Source of the DNA: a phage
NCBI GenBank assembly: GCA_027337125.1
Contig: GCA_027337125.1_3057.1
Direction: 5' to 3' (one strand)
Length of the DNA stretch: 64,000 nt
In this document: in pieces, positions 2,624 to 29,667 of the stretch
Numbering within the stretch: position 1 is the stretch's first letter
How the letters are laid out: each line of letters opens with the position of its first letter
Program-made: the position numbers and the translations under genes
The notes under the pieces: generated by a model
Seen by the model: only the letters and a program-made list of their open reading frames with translations
Databases searched by the model: none
Told to the model about the DNA's origin: nothing

Positions 2624-2958
2624 TGAATTTAACTGATATAATTGATAATTGTCTTGAAAATGATACTGGCGATCATAGAGCGCTTGATTCTGAAACAGCA
2701 CAGTTCATTAGAATAACTTTAATGAATGATACTCTGGTGAACAGTATTCATCCTTCTGTGTATGATGCTATTATTGTGACGAAGTATCCAGTTGAGCTTC
2801 ACAAAAAGATGGTTGGTGCAATTTTTATTGATAAGAAAAACCGCTTTAAAGACGGGCAGAATATAATTAGTTCTGTTATTAAAAGTATAACTAAACTTCG
2901 TCACGAAATTTATCGTGTTGAAACTGCTAAATCTGCTTATCTGGTGATTATGAAATGA
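2620..2958 (+). CDS. hypothetical protein (112 aa)
   Basis: ORF with ATGA overlap to neighbours. Confidence 0.5.
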   Translation: MMNLTDIIDNCLENDTGDHRALDSETAQFIRITLMNDTLVNSIHPSVYDAIIVTKYPVELHKKMVGAIFIDKKNRFKDGQNIISSVIKSITKLRHEIYRVETAKSAYLVIMK

Positions 2959-3536
2959 AAGCGAGTACAGTACTTCAAATTGCATATTTAGTATCACAAG
3001 AATCCAAATGTTGCTCCTGGAAGGTAGGAGCAGTAATTGAAAAGAATGGACGTATTATTTCTACCGGATATAATGGTTCGCCTGCAGGTGGTGTGAACTG
3101 TTGTGATTATGCTGCTGAGCAAGGTTGGTTGCTGAATAAGCCTAAACACACTATCATTCAAGGTCATAAGCCTGAATGCGTATCATTTGGTTCAACTGAT
3201 CGTTTTGTCTTGGCGAAAGAACACCGTAGCGCTCACTCTGAATGGTCGTCTAAAAATGAAATTCATGCTGAACTAAATGCAATTTTGTTTGCTGCACGAA
3301 ATGGTTCTTCAATTGAAGGTGCTACTATGTATGTAACACTTTCTCCTTGTCCAGATTGTGCAAAAGCGATAGCTCAATCTGGAATTAAAAAGCTGGTTTA
3401 TTGCGAAACATACGATAAAAATAAACTTGGTTGGGATGATATTCTGCGAAATGCGGGTATTGAAGTGTTTAATGTTCCTAAGAAAAACTTGAATAAGTTA
3501 AACTGGGAAAATATCAACGAATTCTGTGGTGAATAA
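2955..3536 (+). CDS. cd: dCMP deaminase
   Basis: 193 aa; cytidine/dCMP deaminase zinc motifs HAELNAI and PCPDCA; same length as T4 Cd. Confidence 0.92.
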   Translation: MKASTVLQIAYLVSQESKCCSWKVGAVIEKNGRIISTGYNGSPAGGVNCCDYAAEQGWLLNKPKHTIIQGHKPECVSFGSTDRFVLAKEHRSAHSEWSSKNEIHAELNAILFAARNGSSIEGATMYVTLSPCPDCAKAIAQSGIKKLVYCETYDKNKLGWDDILRNAGIEVFNVPKKNLNKLNWENINEFCGE

Positions 3537-3772: not shown

Positions 3773-4081
3773 ATGAAACTGACGACTGAACAGAAAGTAG
3801 CAATTCGTGAAATTTTGAAAACTAAATTGTCCATGGGTATTTCAAACGTAGTTTTTGAAAAGTCTGATGGTACTATTCGTACTATGAAAGGTACTCGTGA
3901 TGCAGACTTTATGCCAACCATGCAAACCGGTAAATTGACTGAATCTACTCGGAAAGAATCTACTGATATGATTCCAGTATTTGATGTTGAGCTTGGTGCA
4001 TGGCGAGGTTTTTCTATTGACAAATTGATTTCCGTTAATGGTATGAAAGTTGAGCATTTGCTTCAATTTATTGGTAAATAA
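3773..4081 (+). CDS. hypothetical protein (102 aa)
   Basis: ORF between cd and gene 31 (position of T4 31.1-type ORF). Confidence 0.5.
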   Translation: MKLTTEQKVAIREILKTKLSMGISNVVFEKSDGTIRTMKGTRDADFMPTMQTGKLTESTRKESTDMIPVFDVELGAWRGFSIDKLISVNGMKVEHLLQFIGK

Positions 4082-4082
4082 A

Positions 4083-4107
4083 TGCTTTAAGAATTATTTG
4101 TTATTAT
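4083..4107 (+). promoter_or_regulatory. candidate MotA-dependent middle promoter for gene 31
   Basis: MotA box TGCTTTA at 4083-4089, 12 nt spacer, TATTAT at 4102-4107. Confidence 0.5.
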
Positions 4108-4137
4108 TAATTCATCTGTTAACAAAAAGGAAAAACA

Positions 4138-4473
4138 ATGTCTGAAGTACAACAGCTACCAATTCGTGCTGTCGGTGAATTTGTTATTTTAGTTTCTGAA
4201 CCTGCGCAAGCTGGTGATGAAGAAGTTACAGAATCAGGACTTATTATTGGTAAACGTGTCCAAGGTGAAGTTCCTGAACTGTGTGTAGTTCACTCTGTTG
4301 GTCCTGATGTTCCTGAAGGTTTTTGCGAAGTTGGTGATTTGACTTCTCTTCCAGTTGGTCAAATTCGAAACGTTCCACATCCTTTTGTAGCTCTGGGTCT
4401 TAAGCAGCCAAAAGAAATTAAACAAAAATTCGTTACCTGTCACTATAAAGCTATTCCGTGTCTTTATAAGTGA
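4138..4473 (+). CDS. 31: co-chaperonin GroES homolog gp31
   Basis: 111 aa, begins [19 protein letters not shown]; size and position between cd and rIII as in T4. Confidence 0.88.
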
Positions 4474-4481
4474 TATAAATA
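4474..4481 (+). promoter_or_regulatory. candidate late promoter (TATAAATA) upstream of rIII
   Basis: Exact TATAAATA immediately after gene 31 stop. Confidence 0.45.
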
Positions 4482-4620
4482 ATAATATGAATTGGGTGTC
4501 GGAATAATAAGTTAACCGAACAATTCTATGTGGTAGTCTACAACTGAGAGATCTGTCGAAAGAAGATGAAATTCAGAAGAACGTGACTACCGAGTTTTAA
4601 TCTCTAACGAGAATTTTTAA

Positions 4621-4869
4621 ATGATTAAACAATTACAACACGCTCTTGAACTGCAACGAAACGCATGGAATAATGGTCACGAAAACTATGGCGCATCTAT
4701 TGATGTTGAAGCCGAAGCTCTTGAAATCCTGCGTTATTTCAAACATCTGAATCCTGCTCAAACTGCATTAGCTGCTGAGCTTCAGGAAAAAGATGAACTT
4801 AAATATGCTAAGCCTCTGGCTTCTGCTGCACGAAAAGCAGTTCGTCACTTTGTGGTAACATTGAAGTAA
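4621..4869 (+). CDS. rIII: rIII lysis-inhibition accessory protein
   Basis: 82 aa, same length as T4 rIII and immediately downstream of gene 31 as in T4. Confidence 0.8.
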   Translation: MIKQLQHALELQRNAWNNGHENYGASIDVEAEALEILRYFKHLNPAQTALAAELQEKDELKYAKPLASAARKAVRHFVVTLK

Positions 4870-5293
4870 TTATGCCGTGGTTGGTAGTTATCCTGGCGTT
4901 AACGATGTAAAACTACCAAATTTCAGTTAGTATCGAGGAGCCGTCGAACTGTCTGATTAATGATTTGCGAATCATTATAGTTTTAAGACCCCGGCAGTTT
5001 TACGGTGTACCTCTTGAATGTTATTCTTATAGCGGCAAGTGCATGCTACCCCGAGGTGATGGCCAATCGGGAGTACGCCTCAAGGCCTATATATCCATCA
5101 GTATATATCTTATCCTCGAGAAATCGAACCCGGAACCTTTAAGCTAACGGTGTGCAACAGATAAGAGCTATAAGGTATGTTGACGAGGTTTATGGTTATC
5201 CTGTCGTTAAATATCCAAAACCTATGTTCCCCTTGAGGGCTTTCGCAGGCAATGCCAATAAGTCCTGCATTTTCATTTAAAAGAGAATTTATA

Positions 5294-5470
5294 ATGGCAA
5301 AACAAGCTAAAGCAAAGAAAGCAGTTGAAAAGAAAGTTGGTGATTCTAAACGCGCTGGCTACAAGCGTGGGTCGAACTCTCGTATCAATCAAACTATTGA
5401 GAAGATCATGCGCCGAGCACGTGCGGTTCTTCGAGATGATGCTTCTCGTTTTGGTAAGCAGAAAGCATAA
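5294..5470 (+). CDS. small highly basic protein (58 aa; K/R-rich)
   Basis: MAKQAKAKKAVEKKVGDSKRAGYKRGSNSR...; AAGAG RBS 9 nt upstream; followed by strong terminator. Confidence 0.55.
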   Translation: MAKQAKAKKAVEKKVGDSKRAGYKRGSNSRINQTIEKIMRRARAVLRDDASRFGKQKA

Positions 5471-5474
5471 GTTA

Positions 5475-5500
5475 AGGACTCCTTCGGGAGTCCTTTTTTA
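5475..5500 (+). terminator. rho-independent terminator (UUCG tetraloop hairpin + T tract)
   Basis: AGGACTCC-TTCG-GGAGTCCT followed by TTTTTTATTTT. Confidence 0.7.
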
Positions 5501-5523
5501 TTTTCCAAAGATTGCATAAAGTT

Positions 5524-5556
5524 GTTTACAGTATAGTTCCTTTGTGATAGTATTAT
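5524..5556 (+). promoter_or_regulatory. candidate early promoter (GTTTAC ... TGaTAGTATTAT)
   Basis: GTTTAC at 5524-5529, extended -10-like TGaTAGTAT/TATTAT at 5545-5556; spacing slightly atypical. Confidence 0.35.
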
Positions 5557-5580
5557 CTTACACAAACAAAGGAGAATAAA

Positions 5581-5904
5581 ATGAAAACGATTAATCTGAA
5601 CGCTACAGTTAAAACTAAATGCTTCAATGGTAAATATGATGAAACTATGTGGTTCTTAATGGCAGTTGAAGGTGATATTGTTGAAGTAGAAACAACAGAA
5701 GGTATGGGAACAGATTTCACCTTTACAATTCAAGTTCATAATTTCTTTACTGGTTGGATTTATGAATTGAATACAGTAATCGTTGGAAAAATTGAACAAA
5801 ATGAATTAGGTGAATGGTATTATGTTACAGCTCGCCAACGTGCCGAACGCTTAATTGAGAAGATGAAAAAGTTGGTAAACTTGACATGCAACATTGGAAA
5901 GTAG
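5581..5904 (+). CDS. hypothetical protein (107 aa)
   Basis: ORF with AAGGAG RBS (caaAGGAGaataaaATG). Confidence 0.55.
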   Translation: MKTINLNATVKTKCFNGKYDETMWFLMAVEGDIVEVETTEGMGTDFTFTIQVHNFFTGWIYELNTVIVGKIEQNELGEWYYVTARQRAERLIEKMKKLVNLTCNIGK

Positions 5905-5914
5905 TAAAATAATT

Positions 5915-5954
5915 GTTTACTTTGGTACAGGATATGATATTATATACCTGTACC
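5915..5954 (+). promoter_or_regulatory. candidate early promoter GTTTAC-17nt-TGaTATTAT with -10 inside loop of inverted repeat GGTACAGG/CCTGTACC
   Basis: GTTTAC 5915-5920, TATTAT 5938-5943; inverted repeat 5924-5931 / 5947-5954. Confidence 0.5.
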
Positions 5955-5980
5955 ACAATTAAACATCTCGGAGAATAAAA

Positions 5981-6346
5981 ATGAACTACATCAACTTTGA
6001 ACGTAAATATGTTTCTAATGGTATTGCAGGTTCTATTGATACTATCTGCCTTTGGAAACATCAAAATGGATCAGTATGCGAAATTGAACAGTATATGACT
6101 CCTAACTACGTTTATATGCGATTTGAAAATGGCATCACGGTTTCAATCACGAAAGAAGGTTCTTCTTTTAAAATCGCATTAGATGATGATTTCCGTCAAC
6201 GTGATTTAGGTACTCATCCTTGTTGGAATGGCGTCAATCGCAAACTTCTGGTTAAAACTTGGATTCGTCATATTCTGAGTAACAGAGCTAAACCTGAGCA
6301 TCTTGAAGCAATCTTTGATGTAGTTCTTAATGAATTTGATATTTAA
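5981..6346 (+). CDS. hypothetical protein (121 aa)
   Basis: ORF with GGAG RBS; followed by GGGGC-TTCG-GCCCC hairpin. Confidence 0.55.
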   Translation: MNYINFERKYVSNGIAGSIDTICLWKHQNGSVCEIEQYMTPNYVYMRFENGITVSITKEGSSFKIALDDDFRQRDLGTHPCWNGVNRKLLVKTWIRHILSNRAKPEHLEAIFDVVLNEFDI

Positions 6347-6871: not shown

Positions 6872-7074
6872 ATATAATTAATAAGATTTTTGGAATTCAG
6901 TACATTAAGGTCACATATAAAGTAACGTATAAAGGTCCGTATACCGATGAACATGAAGAACCACAAGTTAAGTCTATTATATTAGAAAAGGACCCTAACT
7001 GGCCAGTTGAATTTCGTCTTCCTTGCTATGGTCATTGGGCTGATGTTGAAATTATAAGTATTGAAAATGTCTGA
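6868..7074 (+). CDS. hypothetical protein (68 aa)
   Basis: ORF, ATGA overlap with upstream ORF. Confidence 0.45.
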   Translation: MNIINKIFGIQYIKVTYKVTYKGPYTDEHEEPQVKSIILEKDPNWPVEFRLPCYGHWADVEIISIENV

Positions 7075-7525
7075 GCTAGAAATAAGAAGCAATTTTAGAT
7101 GGCCATCATGTGCATTAAGCAATTTCGCCCAATGGCCTTTTGTTATGGATGGTATCCAATTTGGAGGTCTCGAAGGATTCCTCCAAGGATGTAAGGTGAA
7201 AAATGTTGAACAGCAAAGACGTATATTTGGGATGTCTGGGCTTGCCGCCCAACAAGCTGGAATGTCTTATGCTAGAGCTCAGGACCGTGGCACGTTGTTC
7301 TGGCTTGGAACACCATTTTCAAGATACTCTCCAGCGTGGAAAGAATTATACACAAATGCATATTTTGAAGCAGCGATCCAAAACAGGGGTTTTCGTGATG
7401 CATTACAAGCCTCGAAAGGAAAAGTTTTGAAGCACAGCATGGCTAGTGGTCTAACAAAAGATGATACAATACTAACCGAAGCTGAATTTATTGATGTGTT
7501 AAACCTATTAAGAGACTCTCTATGA
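7061..7525 (+). CDS. NADAR (YbiA-like, DUF1768) domain protein
   Basis: 154 aa; N-terminal ...LSNFAQWPF...GGLEGFLQ... resembles YbiA/NADAR FSNF-AAWP signature; position corresponds to T4 30.3-type gene. Confidence 0.7.
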   Translation: MKMSELEIRSNFRWPSCALSNFAQWPFVMDGIQFGGLEGFLQGCKVKNVEQQRRIFGMSGLAAQQAGMSYARAQDRGTLFWLGTPFSRYSPAWKELYTNAYFEAAIQNRGFRDALQASKGKVLKHSMASGLTKDDTILTEAEFIDVLNLLRDSL

Positions 7526-8367: not shown

Positions 8368-8636
8368 TGTTTGTTGTTCATACTATTTATGAAAATGAAG
8401 GTAATACTACACGTGATTACGGTCACGTAAATCAATTTTTTAGATGCAATCCGGAATTCCGTGCTCAAAAAGACGAACGAATTTTTAAAAAATGTGTAGA
8501 ACAAGGTTTCATTTACGTCAAGCACTGGATGCAAGGAAATAAAGTTAGAACTACATATCATAAGTCTTTGCCTGAGCTTAATGATGAATTGATTTATAAT
8601 AGAAATGTAAATCAAACTTTGAAGGATGAACAATGA
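8367..8636 (+). CDS. hypothetical protein (89 aa)
   Basis: ORF immediately upstream of and overlapping ligase start. Confidence 0.5.
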   Translation: MFVVHTIYENEGNTTRDYGHVNQFFRCNPEFRAQKDERIFKKCVEQGFIYVKHWMQGNKVRTTYHKSLPELNDELIYNRNVNQTLKDEQ

Positions 8637-10093
8637 TTCTTAAAATTCTGAATGAAATAGCATCTATTGGATCAACTAAGCAGAAGCAAGCAATTCTTGA
8701 AAAGAATAAAGATAATGAATTGCTTAAACGAGTATATCGTCTGACTTATTCTCGTGGGTTACAGTATTATATCAAGAAATGGCCTAAGCCTGGTATTGCT
8801 ACCCAGAGTTTTGGAATGCTGACCATTACCGATATGCTTGACTTTATTGAATTTACGTTAGCTACTCGGAAATTAACTGGCAATGCAGCAATTGAGGAAT
8901 TAACTGGATATATCACCGATGGTAAAAAGGATGATGTTGAAGTTTTGCGTCGAGTTATGATGCGAGACCTTGAATGCGGTGCTTCAGTATCTATTGCAAA
9001 CAAAGTTTGGCCGGGTTTAATTCCTGAACAACCTCAAATGCTGGCAAGTTCTTATGATGAAAAAGGCATTAGTAAGAATATCAAGTTTCCAGCTTTTGCG
9101 CAGTTAAAAGCTGATGGAGCTCGGTGTTTTGCTGAAGTCCGAGGTGATGAATTAGATGATGTTCGTCTTTTATCGCGAGCTGGCAATGAATACCTAGGAT
9201 TAGATCTTCTTAAGGAAGAGTTAATCAAAATGACTGCTGAAGCCCGCCAGATTCATCCAGAAGGCGTGTTAATCGATGGCGAATTGGTATACCATGAGCA
9301 AGTTGAAAAAGAACCAGAAGGCCTAGATTTTCTTTTTGATGCTCCTGAAAATAGTAAAGCTAAAGAGTTTGCCGAAGTAGCTGAATCTCGTACTGCTTCT
9401 AATGGAATCGCCAATAAATCTTTAAAGGGAACTATTTCAGAAAAAGAAGCCAAATGCATGAAGTTTCAGGTCTGGGATTATGTTCCGTTGGTAGAAATAT
9501 ACGGTCTTCCGGCGTTTCGTTTAAAATATGATGTACGTTTTTCTAAACTAGAACAAATGACATCAGGATATGATAAAGTAATTTTAATTGAAAACCAAGT
9601 AGTAAATAACCTAGATGAAGCTAAGGTAATTTATAAAAAATATATTGACCAAGGTCTTGAAGGTATTATTCTCAAAAATACCGATGGATTGTGGGAAAAT
9701 GCTCGTTCAAAAAATCTTTATAAATTTAAAGAAGTAATTGATGTTGATTTAAAAATTGTAGGAATTTATCCTCACCGTAAAGACCCTACTAAAGCAGGTG
9801 GATTTATTCTTGAATCAGAGTGTGGAAAAATTAAGGTAAATGCCGGTTCAGGCTTAAAAGATAAAGCCGGCGTAAAATCGCATGAACTTGACCGTACTCG
9901 CATTATGGAAAACCAAAATTATTATATTGGAAAAATTCTAGAGTGCGAATGCAATGGTTGGTTAAAATCTGATGGCCGCACTGATTACGTTAAATTATTT
10001 CTTCCGATTGCGATTCGTTTACGTGAAGATAAAACTAAAGCTAATACATTCGAGGATGTATTTGGTGATTTTCATGAGGTAACTGGTCTATGA
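8633..10093 (+). CDS. 30: ATP-dependent DNA ligase
   Basis: 486 aa; adenylation motif KADGAR (KxDG); sequence and length match T4 gp30 as recalled. Confidence 0.95.
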   Translation: MILKILNEIASIGSTKQKQAILEKNKDNELLKRVYRLTYSRGLQYYIKKWPKPGIATQSFGMLTITDMLDFIEFTLATRKLTGNAAIEELTGYITDGKKDDVEVLRRVMMRDLECGASVSIANKVWPGLIPEQPQMLASSYDEKGISKNIKFPAFAQLKADGARCFAEVRGDELDDVRLLSRAGNEYLGLDLLKEELIKMTAEARQIHPEGVLIDGELVYHEQVEKEPEGLDFLFDAPENSKAKEFAEVAESRTASNGIANKSLKGTISEKEAKCMKFQVWDYVPLVEIYGLPAFRLKYDVRFSKLEQMTSGYDKVILIENQVVNNLDEAKVIYKKYIDQGLEGIILKNTDGLWENARSKNLYKFKEVIDVDLKIVGIYPHRKDPTKAGGFILESECGKIKVNAGSGLKDKAGVKSHELDRTRIMENQNYYIGKILECECNGWLKSDGRTDYVKLFLPIAIRLREDKTKANTFEDVFGDFHEVTGL

Positions 10094-10275
10094 AAGCTTA
10101 CTTAGAAACAATTGTTATAGCTCAAAAAGAAGGTGGAGATGTTTCTACTTCGGTATCGCAAGTCATTCTCGAATTTGTAGATGCGTATGCTTATAATAAA
10201 TTTACAGAAACATTTGATGCCTATGAAAAAGGTCCAAAGTTTGAAATATACCGTACTCTCTTACCATACCACTAG
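10090..10275 (+). CDS. hypothetical protein (61 aa)
   Basis: ATG overlaps ligase stop (ATGA); followed by terminator. Confidence 0.45.
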   Translation: MKAYLETIVIAQKEGGDVSTSVSQVILEFVDAYAYNKFTETFDAYEKGPKFEIYRTLLPYH

Positions 10276-10282
10276 ATTACTA

Positions 10283-10305
10283 AAGGCCTTTGGGCCTTTA
10301 ATTTT
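10283..10305 (+). terminator. rho-independent terminator
   Basis: AAGGCC-TTTG-GGCCTT hairpin followed by TAATTTT. Confidence 0.55.
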
Positions 10306-10312
10306 ATAAATA
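10305..10312 (+). promoter_or_regulatory. candidate late promoter (TATAAATA) for alt
   Basis: Exact TATAAATA about 24 nt upstream of alt start; Alt is a virion-packaged late protein in T4. Confidence 0.55.
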
Positions 10313-10335: not shown

Positions 10336-12429
10336 ATGGAACTTATTACAGAATTATTTGACGAAGATACTACTCTTCCGATTACAAACTTAAATCCAAA
10401 GAAGAAAATACCGCAAATTTTTTCAGTTCATGTTGATGATGCAATTGAACAACCAGGCTTTCGTTTATGTACCTATACATCTGGAGGTGATACTAATCGC
10501 GATTTAAAAATGGGCGATAAAATGATGCATATTGTTCCTTTTACATTAACTGCTAAAGGTTCAATTGCTAAATTAAAAGGTCTCGGTCCAAGCCCAATTA
10601 ATTATATCAATTCAGTTTTTACTGTTGCAATGCAGACGATGCGTCAGTATAAAATTGATGCCTGTATGCTTCGTATTCTTAAGTCTAAAACTGCTGGTCA
10701 AGCTCGACAAATTCAAGTTATTGCTGATAGACTTATCCGTAGTCGTTCAGGTGGCAGATACGTCCTTCTTAAGGAACTCTGGGATTATGATAAAAAGTAT
10801 GCATATATTCTCATACATCGCAAAAATGTATCACTAGAAGACATTCCAGGAGTTCCGGAAATTAGTACCGAGCTCTTTACTAAAGTTGAATCGAAAGTCG
10901 GCGATGTTTATATCAATAAAGATACTGGAGCTCAAGTAACTAAAAATGAAGCAATTGCAGCATCTATTGCGCAAGAAAATGATAAACGTTCTGACCAAGC
11001 TGTTATTGTTAAAGTTAAAATTTCCCGTAGAGCAATTGCGCAAAGTCAGTCATTAGAATCTTCTAGATTTGAAAGCGAATTATTCCAGAAGTATGAATCT
11101 ACCGCAGCCAATTTTAATAAACCTGCTACAGCTCCTTTAATTCCTGAAGCAGAAGAAATGAAACTTGGAATTAATTCATTAGCTTCTAAAACTAAGGCAG
11201 CAAAAATCATTGCCGAAGGAACCGCAGATGAACTTCACTATGACTATAAATTCTTTTCAAAAAGTGAGGTTAATGAAGTTTCTGAAAAAATTAAAGATGT
11301 AATTCTTAATGCGATTAAAAATGAACCAACTACTTCAATAAAATGTTTAGAGAAATACGCAGCAGCTGTTAATCAGTTATTTGAAGAATATAAAGATAAT
11401 TGGCTTGATAAACATAATAAAACCCGTAAAGGACAGCCAGATGAAGTCTGGGAAGAAATAACTAAAAATTCCTGGAACGCAGCAAAAACTAAATTCCTCA
11501 AACGAATGATTTATAGTTTTTCTGGAATTGGTGCAGGTCCAATGATTGATATTACTATTGCCCGTGATGGTTCTAAATATACTCCATCGCAAAAGCGCGG
11601 CATTAGAGAGTATTGTGGATCAGGATATACTGACATCAATAATCTTCTTTTAGGCCGCTACAATCCAGAACGATATGATGTAATGAGTGAAAAAGAAATT
11701 GAATCTGCTATAAATAACTTAGATTCAGCTTTTGAAAATGGTGATCGTATACCAGAAGGCATTACAGTTTATCGTGCTCAAAGCATGACTGCTCCTATAT
11801 ACGAAGCACTAGTTAAAAATAAAGTGTTCTATTTCAGAAATTTTGTATCTACTTCTTTAACTCCTATCATTTTTGGACGTTTTGGAATTACACATGCTGG
11901 TATTGGTCTTTTAGAACCAGAAGCTCGTAATGAATTAACAGTTGATAAAAATGAAGAAGGAATAACTATTAATCCAAGCGAAATAAGAGCGTATAAAGAA
12001 AATCCTGAATACGTTAAAGTTCAAATAGGATGGGCAATTGATGGAGCTCATAAAGTTAATGTTGTATATCCAGGAAGTCTCGGAATAGCAACAGAAGCTG
12101 AAGTTATTCTACCACGCGGATTGATGGTCAAAGTTAATAAAATAACTGACGCTTCTAATAATGACGGAACAACATCTAATAATACAAAACTCATTCAAGC
12201 TGAAGTTATGACTACGGAAGAACTCACCGAATCAGTAATTTATGACGGTGACCGTCTAATGGAAACTGGTGAAGTAGTTGCAATGACAGGTGATATTGAA
12301 ATAGAAGACAGAGTTGACTTTGCATCATTTGTTTCATCAAATGTTAAACAGAAAGTAGAATCATCTCTTGGAATTATTGCGTCTTGCATAGATATTACAA
12401 ACATGCCTTACAAGTTCGTTCAAGGATAA
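10336..12429 (+). CDS. alt: Alt ADP-ribosyltransferase (capsid-packaged)
   Basis: About 697 aa; N-terminus MELITELFDE...; C-terminal ART motifs YRAQ, FVSTSL (STS), EAEVIL (ExE); GAGAGG RBS 5 nt upstream of second ATG. Confidence 0.9.
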   Translation: MELITELFDEDTTLPITNLNPKKKIPQIFSVHVDDAIEQPGFRLCTYTSGGDTNRDLKMGDKMMHIVPFTLTAKGSIAKLKGLGPSPINYINSVFTVAMQTMRQYKIDACMLRILKSKTAGQARQIQVIADRLIRSRSGGRYVLLKELWDYDKKYAYILIHRKNVSLEDIPGVPEISTELFTKVESKVGDVYINKDTGAQVTKNEAIAASIAQENDKRSDQAVIVKVKISRRAIAQSQSLESSRFESELFQKYESTAANFNKPATAPLIPEAEEMKLGINSLASKTKAAKIIAEGTADELHYDYKFFSKSEVNEVSEKIKDVILNAIKNEPTTSIKCLEKYAAAVNQLFEEYKDNWLDKHNKTRKGQPDEVWEEITKNSWNAAKTKFLKRMIYSFSGIGAGPMIDITIARDGSKYTPSQKRGIREYCGSGYTDINNLLLGRYNPERYDVMSEKEIESAINNLDSAFENGDRIPEGITVYRAQSMTAPIYEALVKNKVFYFRNFVSTSLTPIIFGRFGITHAGIGLLEPEARNELTVDKNEEGITINPSEIRAYKENPEYVKVQIGWAIDGAHKVNVVYPGSLGIATEAEVILPRGLMVKVNKITDASNNDGTTSNNTKLIQAEVMTTEELTESVIYDGDRLMETGEVVAMTGDIEIEDRVDFASFVSSNVKQKVESSLGIIASCIDITNMPYKFVQG

Positions 12430-12432
12430 ATC

Positions 12433-14490
12433 ATGGAACTTATTACAGAATTATTTGACGGCGCTTCGGCGCCGGTTGTTAACTTAAATCCTAAGCATAA
12501 AATACCTCAAATTTTTGCTATTCAAGCAGGCGAAGAAAGCGTGCTTCCTGGATTTAGATTTTGTACATACACCTCTGGCGGTGATACAAATAAAAACGTT
12601 AAGCCAGGCGATAAAATGATGCATATCGTAATGATAGGTGTCAATGAAAAGCTATCATTAGTTAAACTTAAAAACTTGGGTGGAAATCCAATTGGTGTTA
12701 TTAATGCGGTTTTTGATACTGCTCTTCAAACAATGAAACAGTATAAAATTGACGCATGCCTATTCCGCGTACTAAAGAGTAAAACAAACGGTGCAGCTCG
12801 TCAAATGCAAGTTATTGCTGACCGTTTAGTACGTACTAAAGGAGCAGGTCGATATGTTCTTTTAAAGGAAATCTGGGACTATGATAAGAAATATGCATAT
12901 ATTATGGTTTACCGTAAAAATGCCAATTTAGAAGACATTCCAGGTGTACCTCCTATTTCAACTGAGTTATTCACAAAAGTTGAATCAAAGGTTGGTGATG
13001 TTTATGTAGACGTTAAAACAGGTAATGCTGTTCCTAAAGCTGTTGCTGTTGCCGCTTCTATTGCTCTAGAAAATGATAAGCGCACGGATCAAGCTGTTAT
13101 TCAGAAAACTAAAATTAGTCGTCGATTAGCAGCACAAGCTCAATATTCTACTGTCGATGCTTCACTTCAGGGTGATAGCTTCGCCGCTAAGAAATATCAA
13201 GAGTTTGAATCTAAAGTTCCAGTATATAAAGCAGAAGGACCAATGAACTCTGGTGTTATTCAGATTGGTTCAAATTTCAGCAAAGGAGCTATAGGTGGTA
13301 TGAGGAGTGCTTCTCGTTTTAAATCTAATGATTATGAACTAGAAAGCTTCCGAAATCATATTGCATTAGCTCATGCACGTTTACGTGATCCATCTATCAA
13401 GTTACAGAGCGATATATCATATCAAGGTTCTCAAGAATATTTAAAGAATAAAGAATTTTTTGATTATAAAACTGATAAAATTTTAAGTGATCTTGCTGAC
13501 ATTAATATTTCTAATAGCTTTGATGTTATTAAGAAAATTGTCAATGATTTAGTTAAAGGTTCTAAAGCCACACCAGATGAAAAGGTAGCTATTGTTCAAT
13601 TTGTCATGAATGGCGTTTATAAATTGATTAATGAGTCTGCTTCTCAAGCGTATGAATATGCAAGTACTGAAGTAACTCCAAAAGGATTAACTCAGGCTGA
13701 GTCTGATGTAATTGAAGATTATTGTGCAGATTCATATGTTGAAATGAACTCGTTCCTTTTAGGTAAACCGGATTCTACCCGTGAAGAATATATGGAACGA
13801 GCTATTAAACACATCGAGACAATGGATTCTGCCTTTGCCAAAGGATCAGTTCTTCCTCCAGGAACTACGCTTTACCGTGGACAAGAAGTTACATTTAAAA
13901 CTTTACGTCATAATATTGAAAATAAAATGTTCTACTTCAAGAACTTCGTATCCACATCGCTTAAACCAAATATCTTCGGTGAGTATGGTAAAAACTATAT
14001 GGCTCTAGATGATTCCGGCGCAGTATTTTCTGGTGAAGGAGAAGGTTCAGTTGACGCAGAAGATTTGATGCATATGGGCAGTCACTCTGCTTATGCGAAT
14101 GAAGATGCTGAAACTAGCGTGGGTATGGTAATTAAAGGAGCTGAGCGAATCAAAGTTATCGTTCCAGGACATTTATCAGGATTTCCATCAGAAGCTGAAG
14201 TTATTTTACCGCGTGGAATTTTGCTGAAGATTAATAAAGTGAGTACGTACATGATGAAAGAAACTGCTTATAATAAGTATCTAATCGAAGGCACAATCGT
14301 TCCTCCTTCTGAACAATTAGAAGAATCGGTATATGATGGCGACCATCTAATGGAAACTGGTGAAGTTCGTCCAATGGCTGGATTTAATCAATTCCTTGTA
14401 GAAGAATCAAAAGAAGAGGAAAACGAAGTTTCTCAAATCTTGGCTTCTTTGGTTAACATCAACGGAATGTCTAAAAAGTTCAAAATGTAG
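12433..14490 (+). CDS. Alt-like ADP-ribosyltransferase paralog
   Basis: 685 aa; first ~230 aa clearly homologous to Alt (MELITELFD..., QYKIDAC..., GRYVLLKE.WDYDKKYAYI...); divergent C-terminal ART domain retaining YRGQ, FVSTSL, EAEVILPRG. Confidence 0.85.
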   Translation: MELITELFDGASAPVVNLNPKHKIPQIFAIQAGEESVLPGFRFCTYTSGGDTNKNVKPGDKMMHIVMIGVNEKLSLVKLKNLGGNPIGVINAVFDTALQTMKQYKIDACLFRVLKSKTNGAARQMQVIADRLVRTKGAGRYVLLKEIWDYDKKYAYIMVYRKNANLEDIPGVPPISTELFTKVESKVGDVYVDVKTGNAVPKAVAVAASIALENDKRTDQAVIQKTKISRRLAAQAQYSTVDASLQGDSFAAKKYQEFESKVPVYKAEGPMNSGVIQIGSNFSKGAIGGMRSASRFKSNDYELESFRNHIALAHARLRDPSIKLQSDISYQGSQEYLKNKEFFDYKTDKILSDLADINISNSFDVIKKIVNDLVKGSKATPDEKVAIVQFVMNGVYKLINESASQAYEYASTEVTPKGLTQAESDVIEDYCADSYVEMNSFLLGKPDSTREEYMERAIKHIETMDSAFAKGSVLPPGTTLYRGQEVTFKTLRHNIENKMFYFKNFVSTSLKPNIFGEYGKNYMALDDSGAVFSGEGEGSVDAEDLMHMGSHSAYANEDAETSVGMVIKGAERIKVIVPGHLSGFPSEAEVILPRGILLKINKVSTYMMKETAYNKYLIEGTIVPPSEQLEESVYDGDHLMETGEVRPMAGFNQFLVEESKEEENEVSQILASLVNINGMSKKFKM

Positions 14491-14519
14491 TTTACAAGTC
14501 CCTCGTGTTGTGTTATAAT
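14490..14519 (+). promoter_or_regulatory. candidate early promoter GTTTAC-18nt-TGtTATAAT
   Basis: GTTTAC 14490-14495; extended -10 TGtTATAAT 14511-14519. Confidence 0.45.
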
Positions 14520-14550
14520 AATTTTACTGACATAACATGAGGAACACAAA

Positions 14551-14841
14551 ATGAAATCTTCTTTGCGCTTTTTAGGTCAAGAACTCGTAGTTGAAGGCGT
14601 TATTCCTGCTGATAACGCTTTTAATGAAGTGGTTTACGACGAATTTATCAAAATTTTTGGAACAGATAAAAAGTTCGGAATTTTTCCTTCTGAAAATTTT
14701 TCAAAGCCAGAACAGACTGAAAGCATTTTCCAAGGTGTAGTAACAGGTAAATTTGAGTCAGAAGCTCCGGTAAAAATTGAAGTTTATATTGAAGACAGTT
14801 TAGTTGCTTCAGTTGCTGCTTTTATTTCATTCCGTAAATAA
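14551..14841 (+). CDS. hypothetical protein (96 aa)
   Basis: ORF with GAGGAA RBS downstream of early-type promoter. Confidence 0.55.
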   Translation: MKSSLRFLGQELVVEGVIPADNAFNEVVYDEFIKIFGTDKKFGIFPSENFSKPEQTESIFQGVVTGKFESEAPVKIEVYIEDSLVASVAAFISFRK

Positions 14842-14847
14842 AAACAT

Positions 14848-14865
14848 GGGGACCGAAAGGTCCCC
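14848..14865. terminator. bidirectional GNRA-tetraloop hairpin terminator (GGGGACC-GAAA-GGTCCCC) between convergent genes
   Basis: Perfect 7-bp stem; lies between + ORF end (14841) and - gene 54 end (14870). Confidence 0.6.
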
Positions 14866-14869
14866 ATTG

Positions 14870-28662: not shown

Positions 28663-29667
28663 ATGTTTAAAAAGTATAGCAGTCTTGAAAATCATTACAA
28701 TTCTAAATTCATTGAAAAACTTTACAGTTTAGGATTGACTGGCGGCGAATGGGTAGCTCGTGAAAAGATTCATGGTACAAATTTCTCGTTGATTATTGAG
28801 CGCGATAAAGCAACTTGTGCTAAACGTACTGGACCGATTCTTCCTGCTGAAGATTTCTTTGGGTATGAAATTATTCTAAAGAATTATGCTGATTCCATTA
28901 AAGCAGTACAAGATATTATGGAAACTTCAGCAGTTGTATCTTATCAAGTCTTCGGTGAATTTGCTGGACCTGGCATTCAGAAGAATGTCGATTATGGTGA
29001 TAAAGATTTTTATGTATTTGACATTATTGTTACTACAGAAAGTGGTGATGTGACTTATGTCGATGATTATATGATGGAATCATTCTGTAATACATTCAAA
29101 TTTAAAATGGCTCCACTTTTAGGTCGTGGTAAATTTGAAGAGCTTATTAAATTGCCAAATGATTTAGATTCTGTAGTCCAGGATTATAATTTTACGGTAG
29201 ACCATGCTGGATTAGTTGATGCAAATAAATGCGTTTGGAATGCCGAAGCAAAAGGCGAAGTATTTACTGCTGAAGGATATGTATTGAAACCTTGTTATCC
29301 TTCTTGGATGCCTAATGGCAATCGTGTAGCTATTAAATGCAAGAACTCTAAATTTAGTGAAAAGAAAAAGTCTGATAAGCCTATTAAAGCTAAAGTTGAG
29401 TTGTCAGAAGCTGATAATAAATTGCTGGGAATTTTAGCTTGCTACGTTACACTGAACCGAGTAAATAACGTTATTTCTAAAATTGGCGAAATTGGTCCGA
29501 AGGATTTTGGAAAGGTGATGGGACTAACTGTTCAAGATATTTTGGAAGAAACTTCTCGTGAAGGTATTACTCTAACTCAAGCGGATAATCCTTCTTTGAT
29601 TAAAAAGGAATTAGTTAAAATGGTACAAGATGTACTTCGTCCGGCTTGGATTGAATTGGTAAGTTAA
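28663..29667 (+). CDS. rnlB: RNA ligase 2
   Basis: 334 aa; nucleotidyltransferase motif KIHGTN; matches T4 Rnl2 length and sequence as recalled. Confidence 0.9.

Follow-up and report, generated by a model that had tools for sequence, protein, structure and literature searches.

Why does a T4-like phage carry two Alt-type ADP-ribosyltransferase (ART) genes side by side, and does the second do anything that the first does not? The question is raised by positions 10336 to 14490 of a 64,000-nucleotide stretch of phage DNA (GCA_027337125.1, contig GCA_027337125.1_3057.1; the window), which around the pair is a Tequatrovirus (T4/T2-like) genome segment by its open reading frames (ORFs) and Pfam matches. 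The original prediction, made from the letters alone, described two adjacent, co-oriented genes encoding proteins of 697 and 685 amino acids (aa), and the ORF listing agrees. The first ORF is listed as 10333/10336-12429, the ATG at 10336 giving 697 aa, and the second gene follows in the same orientation after 3 nucleotides (nt). The 697-aa protein is called Alt1 here and the 685-aa protein Alt2.

10336 to 12429, + strand: alt1, 697 aa plus stop, T2-type Alt
12433 to 14490, + strand: alt2, 685 aa plus stop

Our analysis indicates that the two genes probably encode capsid-delivered, arginine-specific mono-ADP-ribosyltransferases that have a delivery module in common and differ in their catalytic and recognition cassettes, and that the locus evolves by recombination in the common modules. 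Gene structure, motifs, predicted fold, selection, recombination products and distribution were determined in this analysis; the packaging and processing of T4 Alt and the transposon-sequencing (Tn-seq) phenotypes of phage Bas37 were taken from the literature.

Modular anatomy of Alt1 and Alt2

Alt1 and Alt2 were 41% identical overall in a BLASTP comparison of the pair (E = 4e-159), and their similarity is therefore due to homology rather than chance. Both proteins aligned end to end with PHROG 802, the Alt-like RNA polymerase ADP-ribosyltransferases (2e-272 and 4e-255), and both matched PF03496 (ADPrib_exo_Tox) above its gathering cut-off of 23.4 bits (Alt1, 1.3e-37 and 129.5 bits; Alt2, 2.4e-20 and 73.2 bits). 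The Tevenvirinae_ADPRT domain (PF26846), which is precomputed on homologues at least 88% identical to Alt1 or Alt2, occupies the extreme N-terminus of both (about aa 1-240). When aa 1-240 of Alt2 were used as the query, only Alt-like proteins were recovered and the match was always at their N-terminus. NCBIfam had no model for Alt1 or Alt2.

The anatomy of the proteins was derived from an alignment of Alt1, Alt2 and T4 Alt and from a diverse, 53-member family alignment. The diversity of the latter was reached with a profile of distant members, a plain alignment-based homologue search having given the same Tequatrovirus set.

Alt1: propeptide, aa 1-6; N module, 7-238; variable helical region, 239-415; ART domain, about 416-626; C-propeptide, 633-697
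Alt2: propeptide, aa 1-6; N module, 7-237; variable helical region, 238-418; ART domain, about 419-626; C-propeptide, 632-685

Identity between Alt1 and Alt2, and mean identity in the family, by segment:
N-terminal nine residues (MELITELFD): identical in the pair
N-domain, to about aa 238: pair about 68% (53-80% per 30-aa window); family 47%
Helical region, about aa 239-418 in Alt2 numbering: pair about 10%; family 14%
ART core: pair 35-54%; family 45-53%
Insert between S-T-S and E-x-E: pair about 5%; family 15%
C-terminal block around (L)xES..YDGDxLMETGE: conserved in the pair; family 53%
Last 40 or so residues: variable; family 26%

The N-terminal 230 or so residues of the pair had been described as near-identical, which overstates an identity of about 68% over the first 238 aa. 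True near-identity was found between the N modules of Alt1 and T4 Alt (99.6% over aa 1-246). The strong divergence claimed for the C-terminal parts is real but uneven, being far greater in the helical region and the insert than in the ART core. All of the motifs quoted in the original prediction are present (MELITELFD, QYKIDAC, GRYVLLKE.WDYDKKYAYI, YRAQ/YRGQ, FVSTSL and EAEVILPRG).

Catalytic residues, predicted fold and selection

The R-S-E triad proposed for both proteins is intact in each on proper alignment, and its residues lie at the following positions.

Alt1: R480 (11773-11775), S505/S507 (11848-11856), E587/E589 (12094-12102)
Alt2: R482 (13876-13878), S507/S509 (13951-13959), E587/E589 (14191-14199); F584 at the position of the ADP-ribosylating turn-turn (ARTT) loop

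The arginine, the serines of S-T-S and both glutamates of E-x-E fell in invariant columns of the 53-member alignment and lined up with the corresponding motifs of the toxins Vis and CDTa. An E-x-E motif, rather than Q-x-E, is the signature of arginine specificity in R-S-E ARTs; the motif reads EAE in Alt1 and Alt2 and EME in T4 Alt. A sequence search found no solved Alt structure and gave only weak matches to Vis, CDTa and iota. AlphaFold models of the pair had a mean predicted local distance difference test score of 79.7 and 81.9; the ART domains were mostly at 79-95, part of the Alt2 insert being the one place with lower values. The Foldseek neighbors of the Alt1 model were Vis, CDTa, iota Ia and C3, and the fold is that of the R-S-E clade, a split beta-sheet ART core with an N-terminal helical subdomain. 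No MuF (Phage_Mu_F) domain was found N-terminal to the effector part of either protein.

The ratio of nonsynonymous to synonymous substitution rates (dN/dS) was 0.02-0.05 for both genes among five phages, with dS up to 0.25, which indicates strong purifying selection. Alt2 was considered as a pseudogene and rejected, its frame being intact in all five phages at a dN/dS of about 0.03. Both genes thus look like intact, active Alt-family ARTs, the activity of Alt2 being predicted from its conserved residues.

Packaging, processing and expression signals

T4 Alt belongs to the prohead core, with about 40 copies that leave the capsid together with the DNA (PMC9026906). Its cleavage by gp21 at ITE-6 and LTE-619, established by mass spectrometry, yields a protein of 68.2 kDa (PMC5694885); the mass that we computed for residues 7-619, 68.25 kDa, reproduces this value. 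Motifs for gp21 occur at the aligned positions near both ends of both proteins of the pair, and the cleavages that they predict are as follows.

Alt1: ITE-6 and LTE-632 (12223-12231), predicted product 70.1 kDa
Alt2: ITE-6 and LEE-631 (14317-14325), predicted product 69.1 kDa

In the 53-member alignment E6 was invariant and the second cleavage glutamate nearly so, and the models of Alt1 and Alt2 were disordered exactly at residues 1-10 and 629-636. The signals for expression around the pair are listed below.

10281 to 10300, + strand: intrinsic-terminator-like hairpin from a terminator scan, 8-bp stem then T-run; ends the upstream early unit (gene 30 / alt.1)
10305 to 10312, + strand: putative T4 late promoter box TATAAATA, exact match, 24 nt 5' of the alt1 start codon
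11709 to 11716, + strand: second TATAAATA box, exact match inside alt1, 717 nt 5' of alt2
12421 to 12425, + strand: Shine-Dalgarno-like AAGGA for alt2, within the last alt1 codons and 7 nt before the ATG at 12433

The window contains 19 TATAAATA boxes against 9.6 expected, and the box at 10305-10312 is the sole copy directly 5' of the pair. The alt1 start codon at 10336 is preceded, at a distance of 5 nt, by the Shine-Dalgarno sequence GAGAGG. Like other Alt-family loci, the pair lies between gene 30 / alt.1 and gene 54 with a late promoter box upstream. We consider it probable that alt1 and alt2 are transcribed late, as a bicistronic operon behind this one promoter, whose use is predicted from the exact match. 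The box inside alt1 may have arisen by chance or may serve as an internal late promoter, in which case alt2 transcription would not have to depend on alt1.

The N module, the gp21 motifs, the late promoter and Shine-Dalgarno signals and the disorder at the cleavage sites together suggest that Alt2 would be packaged and processed like Alt. Alt2 is thus probably a second injected effector, as had been proposed: the part of that proposal that stands is an intact ART with the Alt N module and both gp21 motifs, and injection follows from it as a reasonable expectation.

Distribution of the pair and loss of Alt2 in T4

The pair is the standard T2-type alt locus and is already annotated. The 5-kb region matched 546 phage records, 354 of which covered at least 80% of it, and the best DNA match over the 5 kb was phage PP01 (97.9%). 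At an identity of at least 90%, Alt2 was found in 402 phage records, the T2-type Alt1 in 317 and the T4-type central cassette in 173. Phage T2 has the same pair of 697 and 685 aa (Alt1 98.6% and Alt2 97.7% identical), and the BASEL phage Bas37 (KarlGJung, MZ501089) encodes bas37_0033, "ADP-ribosyltransferase Alt" (99.4% identical to Alt1), and bas37_0032, "ADP-ribosyltransferase Alt2" (98.8% identical to Alt2). In many Tequatrovirus records the RefSeq label of the pair is "Alt-like RNA polymerase ADP-ribosyltransferase (x2)". Genes, order and context (gene 30, alt.1, alt, alt2, alt.-3, gene 54) are the same in T2, Bas37 and the window, which is another isolate of this arrangement with no difference of substance. 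Nolan et al. 2006 (PMC1524935) had already described duplicated Alt genes in T4-like phages, and the T4 GenBank notes mention them too. The novelty implied for a second paralog was therefore not borne out, the pair being present in T2 and some 400 GenBank records; no characterized target of Alt2 was found.

T4 does have a single full-length alt, as stated in the original prediction, and the remainder of its second copy could be located by blastn. Positions 12781 to 14470 of the window (+ strand), a 1.69-kb stretch of alt2, are deleted in T4. Nucleotides 1-396 of the T4 remnant correspond to window positions 12384-12780 (95.2% identity) and nucleotides 388-617 to positions 14471-14700 (95.7%). 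The T4 genes alt.-1 and alt.-2 match window positions 12433-12780, that is, the first 348 nt of alt2 (95% DNA identity), followed by the last 20 nt of alt2. The deletion junction carries the microhomology CTAAA(G/A)AG, and there is a frameshift in addition. The PHROG families of alt.-1 and alt.-2 matched Alt2 far better than Alt1. Although T4 annotation calls these genes (positions 4066-4451 of the T4 locus, L002) "an old duplication of the first part of gene alt," the leftover genes are better described as what remains of a full-length Alt2 after a recent, microhomology-flanked deletion. The 95% identical remnant, the 1.69-kb deletion and the PHROG matches argue that T4 is a recent derivative that lost Alt2 and that the window does not represent a gain.

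Recombination of delivery and catalytic modules

Comparison with T4 Alt revealed a swapped central cassette in Alt1: the N module was 99-100% and the C tail about 90% identical, and the helical region and ART domain were only about 31 and 59% identical, respectively. For Alt2 the corresponding values were 0-20% in the helical region and about 37% in the ART domain. Phage SHFML-26 pairs a T4-type Alt with an intact Alt2, so the two positions of the locus assort independently. The cargo of Alt2 was closer to the Alt of JS10-type phages (47-54%) than to Alt1 (0-37%) and its N module was closer to Alt1 (68%) than to JS10 (45%). These opposite nearest relatives show that N module and cargo have different histories.

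In each of four metagenomic proteins a single clean crossover joins an N part of the Alt1 type, which ends near aa 44, 103, 175 or 219, to Alt2. Two of the contigs, 65 and 110 kb long, have no alt gene other than the chimera between alt.1 and alt.-3. The chimeric genes lie at positions 4001-6055 and 4001-6061 of metagenomic contig loci L014 and L015, and also in L012 and L013. Assembly artefacts are an unlikely source of them: the longest exact match between alt1 and alt2 is 28 nt, the breakpoints share only 2-12 nt, the four breakpoints came from four samples, and one long contig with a sole chimera was a k=99 assembly. Phages with a single chimera are Alt2-only phages that arose by recombination between the tandem copies.

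In a set of 1.84 billion proteins, the Alt N-domain fell into 69 clusters at 50% identity; it was always N-terminal and almost always accompanied by an ART. The idea that it is a general carrier of many cargo types was rejected, since nearly all 69 clusters carry an ART. One protein of 541 aa (P0267) has the Alt N-domain at aa 3-161 followed by about 380 aa without a detectable ART or Pfam domain, which suggests that another kind of cargo may be attached there to the delivery module. Another, of 485 aa (P0266), has a degenerate ART with K for the catalytic R and N for the first E of E-x-E. Three alt-like genes stand in tandem 5' of gene 54 in Aeromonas phage 31 (L008, 1-4426), and the Acinetobacter phages ZZ1 and Henu6 had "split" Alt genes among BFVD matches. 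Changes in copy number and architecture at the alt locus recur across Straboviridae. As judged from these comparisons, the locus behaves as a recombining cassette system with a common N-terminal module and swappable catalytic modules.

Phenotypes of Alt and Alt2 disruption in Bas37

Functional data for genes about 99% identical to those of the window are available from the HIDEN-SEQ preprint on Bas37, including its Extended Data Table 7 (10.1101/2025.11.20.689424). That study identified T4 Alt as an anti-defense factor against Mokosh type I. Ectopic Alt from T4, but not that from Bas37, restored the ability to form plaques on this system, and Bas37 needs alt, modA and the beta-alpha glucosyltransferase against Mokosh. 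Its text is silent on Alt2, for which the values stand in Extended Data Table 7. On K-12, bas37_0032 (Alt2) was classed as "Intermediate," with 116 of 164 TA sites hit at about 42-45 mean reads, and Bas37 Alt was classed as "Non-essential," with 164 of 179 sites hit at about 204-213 mean reads. Insertions in Alt2 were under-represented on every tested host, and the cost was already there on K-12 and K-12 deltaRM. The log2 fold changes (log2FC) of Alt2 in CFT073, CFE299, CFE303, CFE331 and CFE336 were +0.11, +0.19, 0.00, +0.12 and +0.36, none of them significant. Cloned Mokosh type I reduced Alt insertions to zero reads (log2FC -7.74) and enriched Alt2 insertions (log2FC +1.32, adjusted p = 0) (10.1101/2025.11.20.689424).

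Disruption of Alt2 thus carries a host-general cost. The opposite phenotypes under Mokosh and the difference at baseline show that the paralogs are not redundant and that Alt2 is not a Mokosh countermeasure. A different role for the second protein, which had been proposed together with a different target, is in agreement with these data, and distinct targets are suggested by the divergence of the cassettes. The enrichment of Alt2 insertions under Mokosh may mean that removal of Alt2 frees common packaging sites for Alt.

Proposed function of the pair and alternative explanations

The explanation that we favor can be put as a sequence of events. Each protein would consist of a 6-aa N-propeptide, the N-domain of about 230 aa, a hypervariable helical region, an R-S-ExE catalytic domain of the C3/VIP2/Vis kind whose insert and ARTT loop are hypervariable, and, after the LxE site, a C-terminal propeptide. 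Alt1 and Alt2 would be made late and enter the prohead core, where gp21 would trim both at ITE-6 and LxE-631/632 to about 69-70 kDa. Both would ride in the head, reach the next host with the DNA and use NAD+ on different sets of host proteins. Alt1, of the T2 type, would help to evade Mokosh type I; Alt2 would instead have a host-general role that raises infection fitness. The common delivery module makes it probable that the two compete for limited packaging sites. Recombination in the common modules would swap, delete or fuse the catalytic cassettes. Within this explanation we infer the packaging and injection of Alt2, its enzymatic activity, the distinct targets and the competition for packaging.

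Several points weigh against it. The substrate sets of Alt1 and Alt2 may overlap heavily, since different targets are deduced from sequence divergence, and Alt enzymes are reportedly promiscuous in vitro. The enrichment of +1.32 has other possible explanations, for instance that Alt2 activity sensitizes the phage to Mokosh. The low density of Alt2 insertions could stem from transposon bias or toxic truncated products instead of the loss of a useful activity, although the neighboring alt gene, which has the same architecture and no such effect, argues against this. T4 and about one quarter of the Tequatrovirus records do well without Alt2, and its role is therefore dispensable in some backgrounds. 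A literature search, with subscription journals outside its coverage, turned up neither virion proteomics nor biochemistry for Alt2 nor any paper naming it, so that its packaging, injection and activity are all predicted.

Four other readings were weighed. A bolder form of the favored explanation, which we put forward tentatively and would not expect to hold in full, sees Alt and Alt2 as differently targeted warheads on one delivery module that compete for about 40 capsid slots, with one injected activity traded against the other. Recombination would then re-assort, fuse and drop warheads to suit host immunity and physiology, the Mokosh enrichment would be a first sign of this trade, and Alt2 would have its own undiscovered target that matters in every tested E. 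coli strain. It is rather unlikely that Alt2 is a dedicated anti-defense effector, injected before gene expression, that ADP-ribosylates and disables one immune system other than that countered by its neighbor. Both T4 and Bas37 need their Alt to withstand Mokosh type I and the two alleles are not interchangeable when ectopic, cassette swapping and hypervariable substrate-facing regions resemble an arms-race locus, and the presence of Alt2 differs between close relatives. However, Alt2 insertions showed no host-specific depletion in the five clinical isolates and were enriched under Mokosh type I, and a cost already seen on K-12 and K-12 deltaRM fits a general role better. Within the scope of a handful of hosts and one cloned system, the anti-defense function suggested in the original prediction is weakened and has no support so far.

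We regard it as improbable that Alt2 is a largely redundant dosage copy whose main targets, RNA polymerase alpha among them, are those of Alt1 and which serves to increase or buffer the activity that is injected. The common family architecture, catalytic residues and expression unit, the promiscuity generally ascribed to Alt enzymes and the loss of Alt2 from T4 without obvious harm would fit such a copy. The ART domains are, however, only 35% identical and the helical region and insert only 5-10%, yet the conservation of either copy between phages is 97-99%, at a dN/dS of about 0.03; the nearer kinship of the Alt2 cargo to the single Alt of JS10-type phages means that the lineages are old; and the Tn-seq phenotypes are opposite under Mokosh and different at baseline. 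Most improbable of all is an Alt2 that is made late, stays unpackaged and acts in the producing cell, or that is an inactive structural or regulatory relative. A late cytoplasmic role is compatible with the sequence, but Alt2 keeps the N-propeptide (residues 1-9 are those of Alt1), the N-domain and an LxE at the aligned T4 C-terminal cleavage position, its N module is exchangeable with that of Alt1 in natural chimeras, and the invariance of all catalytic residues under strong purifying selection argues against a pseudoenzyme.

Neighboring genes

The pair is preceded by gene 30 and alt.1 and followed by alt.-3 and then by the converging baseplate genes 54, 48 and 29. Features outside the pair are given below.

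748 to 1656: polynucleotide kinase/phosphatase PseT, an ordinary T-even gene
2955 to 3536: dCMP deaminase, an ordinary T-even gene
7061 to 7525: homologue of T4 gene 30.3 (Pfam Phage_30_3, 2e-69), 3 kb 5' of the pair
8633 to 10093: DNA ligase, gene 30
10090 to 10275: alt.1
14491 to 14519, + strand: early-type sigma-70 promoter for alt.-3 (TTTACA, 17-nt spacer, TG-TATAAT; 11/12 matches, extended -10)
14551 to 14841, + strand: alt.-3 homologue, 96 aa (DUF5498, Pfam 8e-64)
14846 to 14867, no strand assigned: bidirectional terminator hairpin between alt.-3 and the converging gene 54
28663 to 29667: RNA ligase 2, an ordinary T-even gene

The alt.-3 homologue is 99% identical to T4 alt.-3 and 97.9% identical to bas37_0031, and its own early-type promoter makes it a transcription unit apart from the late alt operon. 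In the HIDEN-SEQ supplement bas37_0031 was depleted in uropathogenic CFT073 (log2FC -2.70, adjusted p 0.02), an effect apparently absent from the discussion in the main text, and alt.-3 is thus a candidate host-specific factor. The 30.3 protein is a NADAR-type anti-DarTG1 factor, AdfN (10.1101/2025.11.20.689424), and its homologue in the window is a second ADP-ribosylation-related counter-defense gene near the pair. The Bas37 orthologue of PseT becomes essential in isolate CFE336 (log2FC -7.58; 10.1101/2025.11.20.689424).

Significance and comparison with known systems

The pair is ordinary for T2-like phages and adds nothing on gene content. Its interest lies in the fact that the textbook view of Alt rests on T4, in which the locus has a deletion and which is in the minority; the majority of sequenced Tequatroviruses encode, and probably inject, a second Alt that is very unlike the first. 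In Bas37, where this was measured, disruption of Alt2 has a larger baseline cost than that of the classical Alt. Recent work links Alt alleles to the evasion of Mokosh type I. With a delivery module in common, chimeras in nature and knockout tools at hand, the pair allows the specificity of injected ARTs to be tested directly, and it is also relevant to the choice and engineering of therapeutic T-even phages.

Alt1 resembles T4 Alt (gpAlt, NP_049811) in its N module, C tail (about 90%), gp21 sites, R/STS/ExE residues and locus and differs from it in the central cassette. Alt2 is like T4 Alt in architecture and motifs, and T4 itself keeps only a 5' remnant of it. The toxins C3, VIP2, iota Ia, CDTa and Vis have the same R-S-ExE motifs and are arginine-specific (or asparagine-specific), but they rely on a binary-toxin pore or secretion, whereas Alt uses capsid and tail. 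Alt proteins differ from those toxins further in their long N-domain, which is specific to phages, their helical region and their propeptides removed by a protease, and the Alt family has an insert of 45-85 alignment columns between STS and ExE that the toxins lack. T4 ModA and ModB are also R-S-E ARTs that act on host proteins but, unlike Alt, are about 200 aa long, early and unpackaged. The T4 internal proteins IPI-III are, like Alt, prohead-core proteins that are processed by gp21 and ejected with the DNA, and their locus is likewise a hypervariable locus of anti-defense cargo. They are, however, small non-enzymes with a capsid-targeting sequence of 10-20 aa, whereas the Alt N-domain has about 230 aa, is kept on the mature protein and occurs almost exclusively with ART cargo. 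MuF-fused and polyvalent head-packaged ARTs (PMC9503650) follow the same logic as the alt pair, in which a head-associated module is joined to an injected ART of the Alt/VIP2 type.

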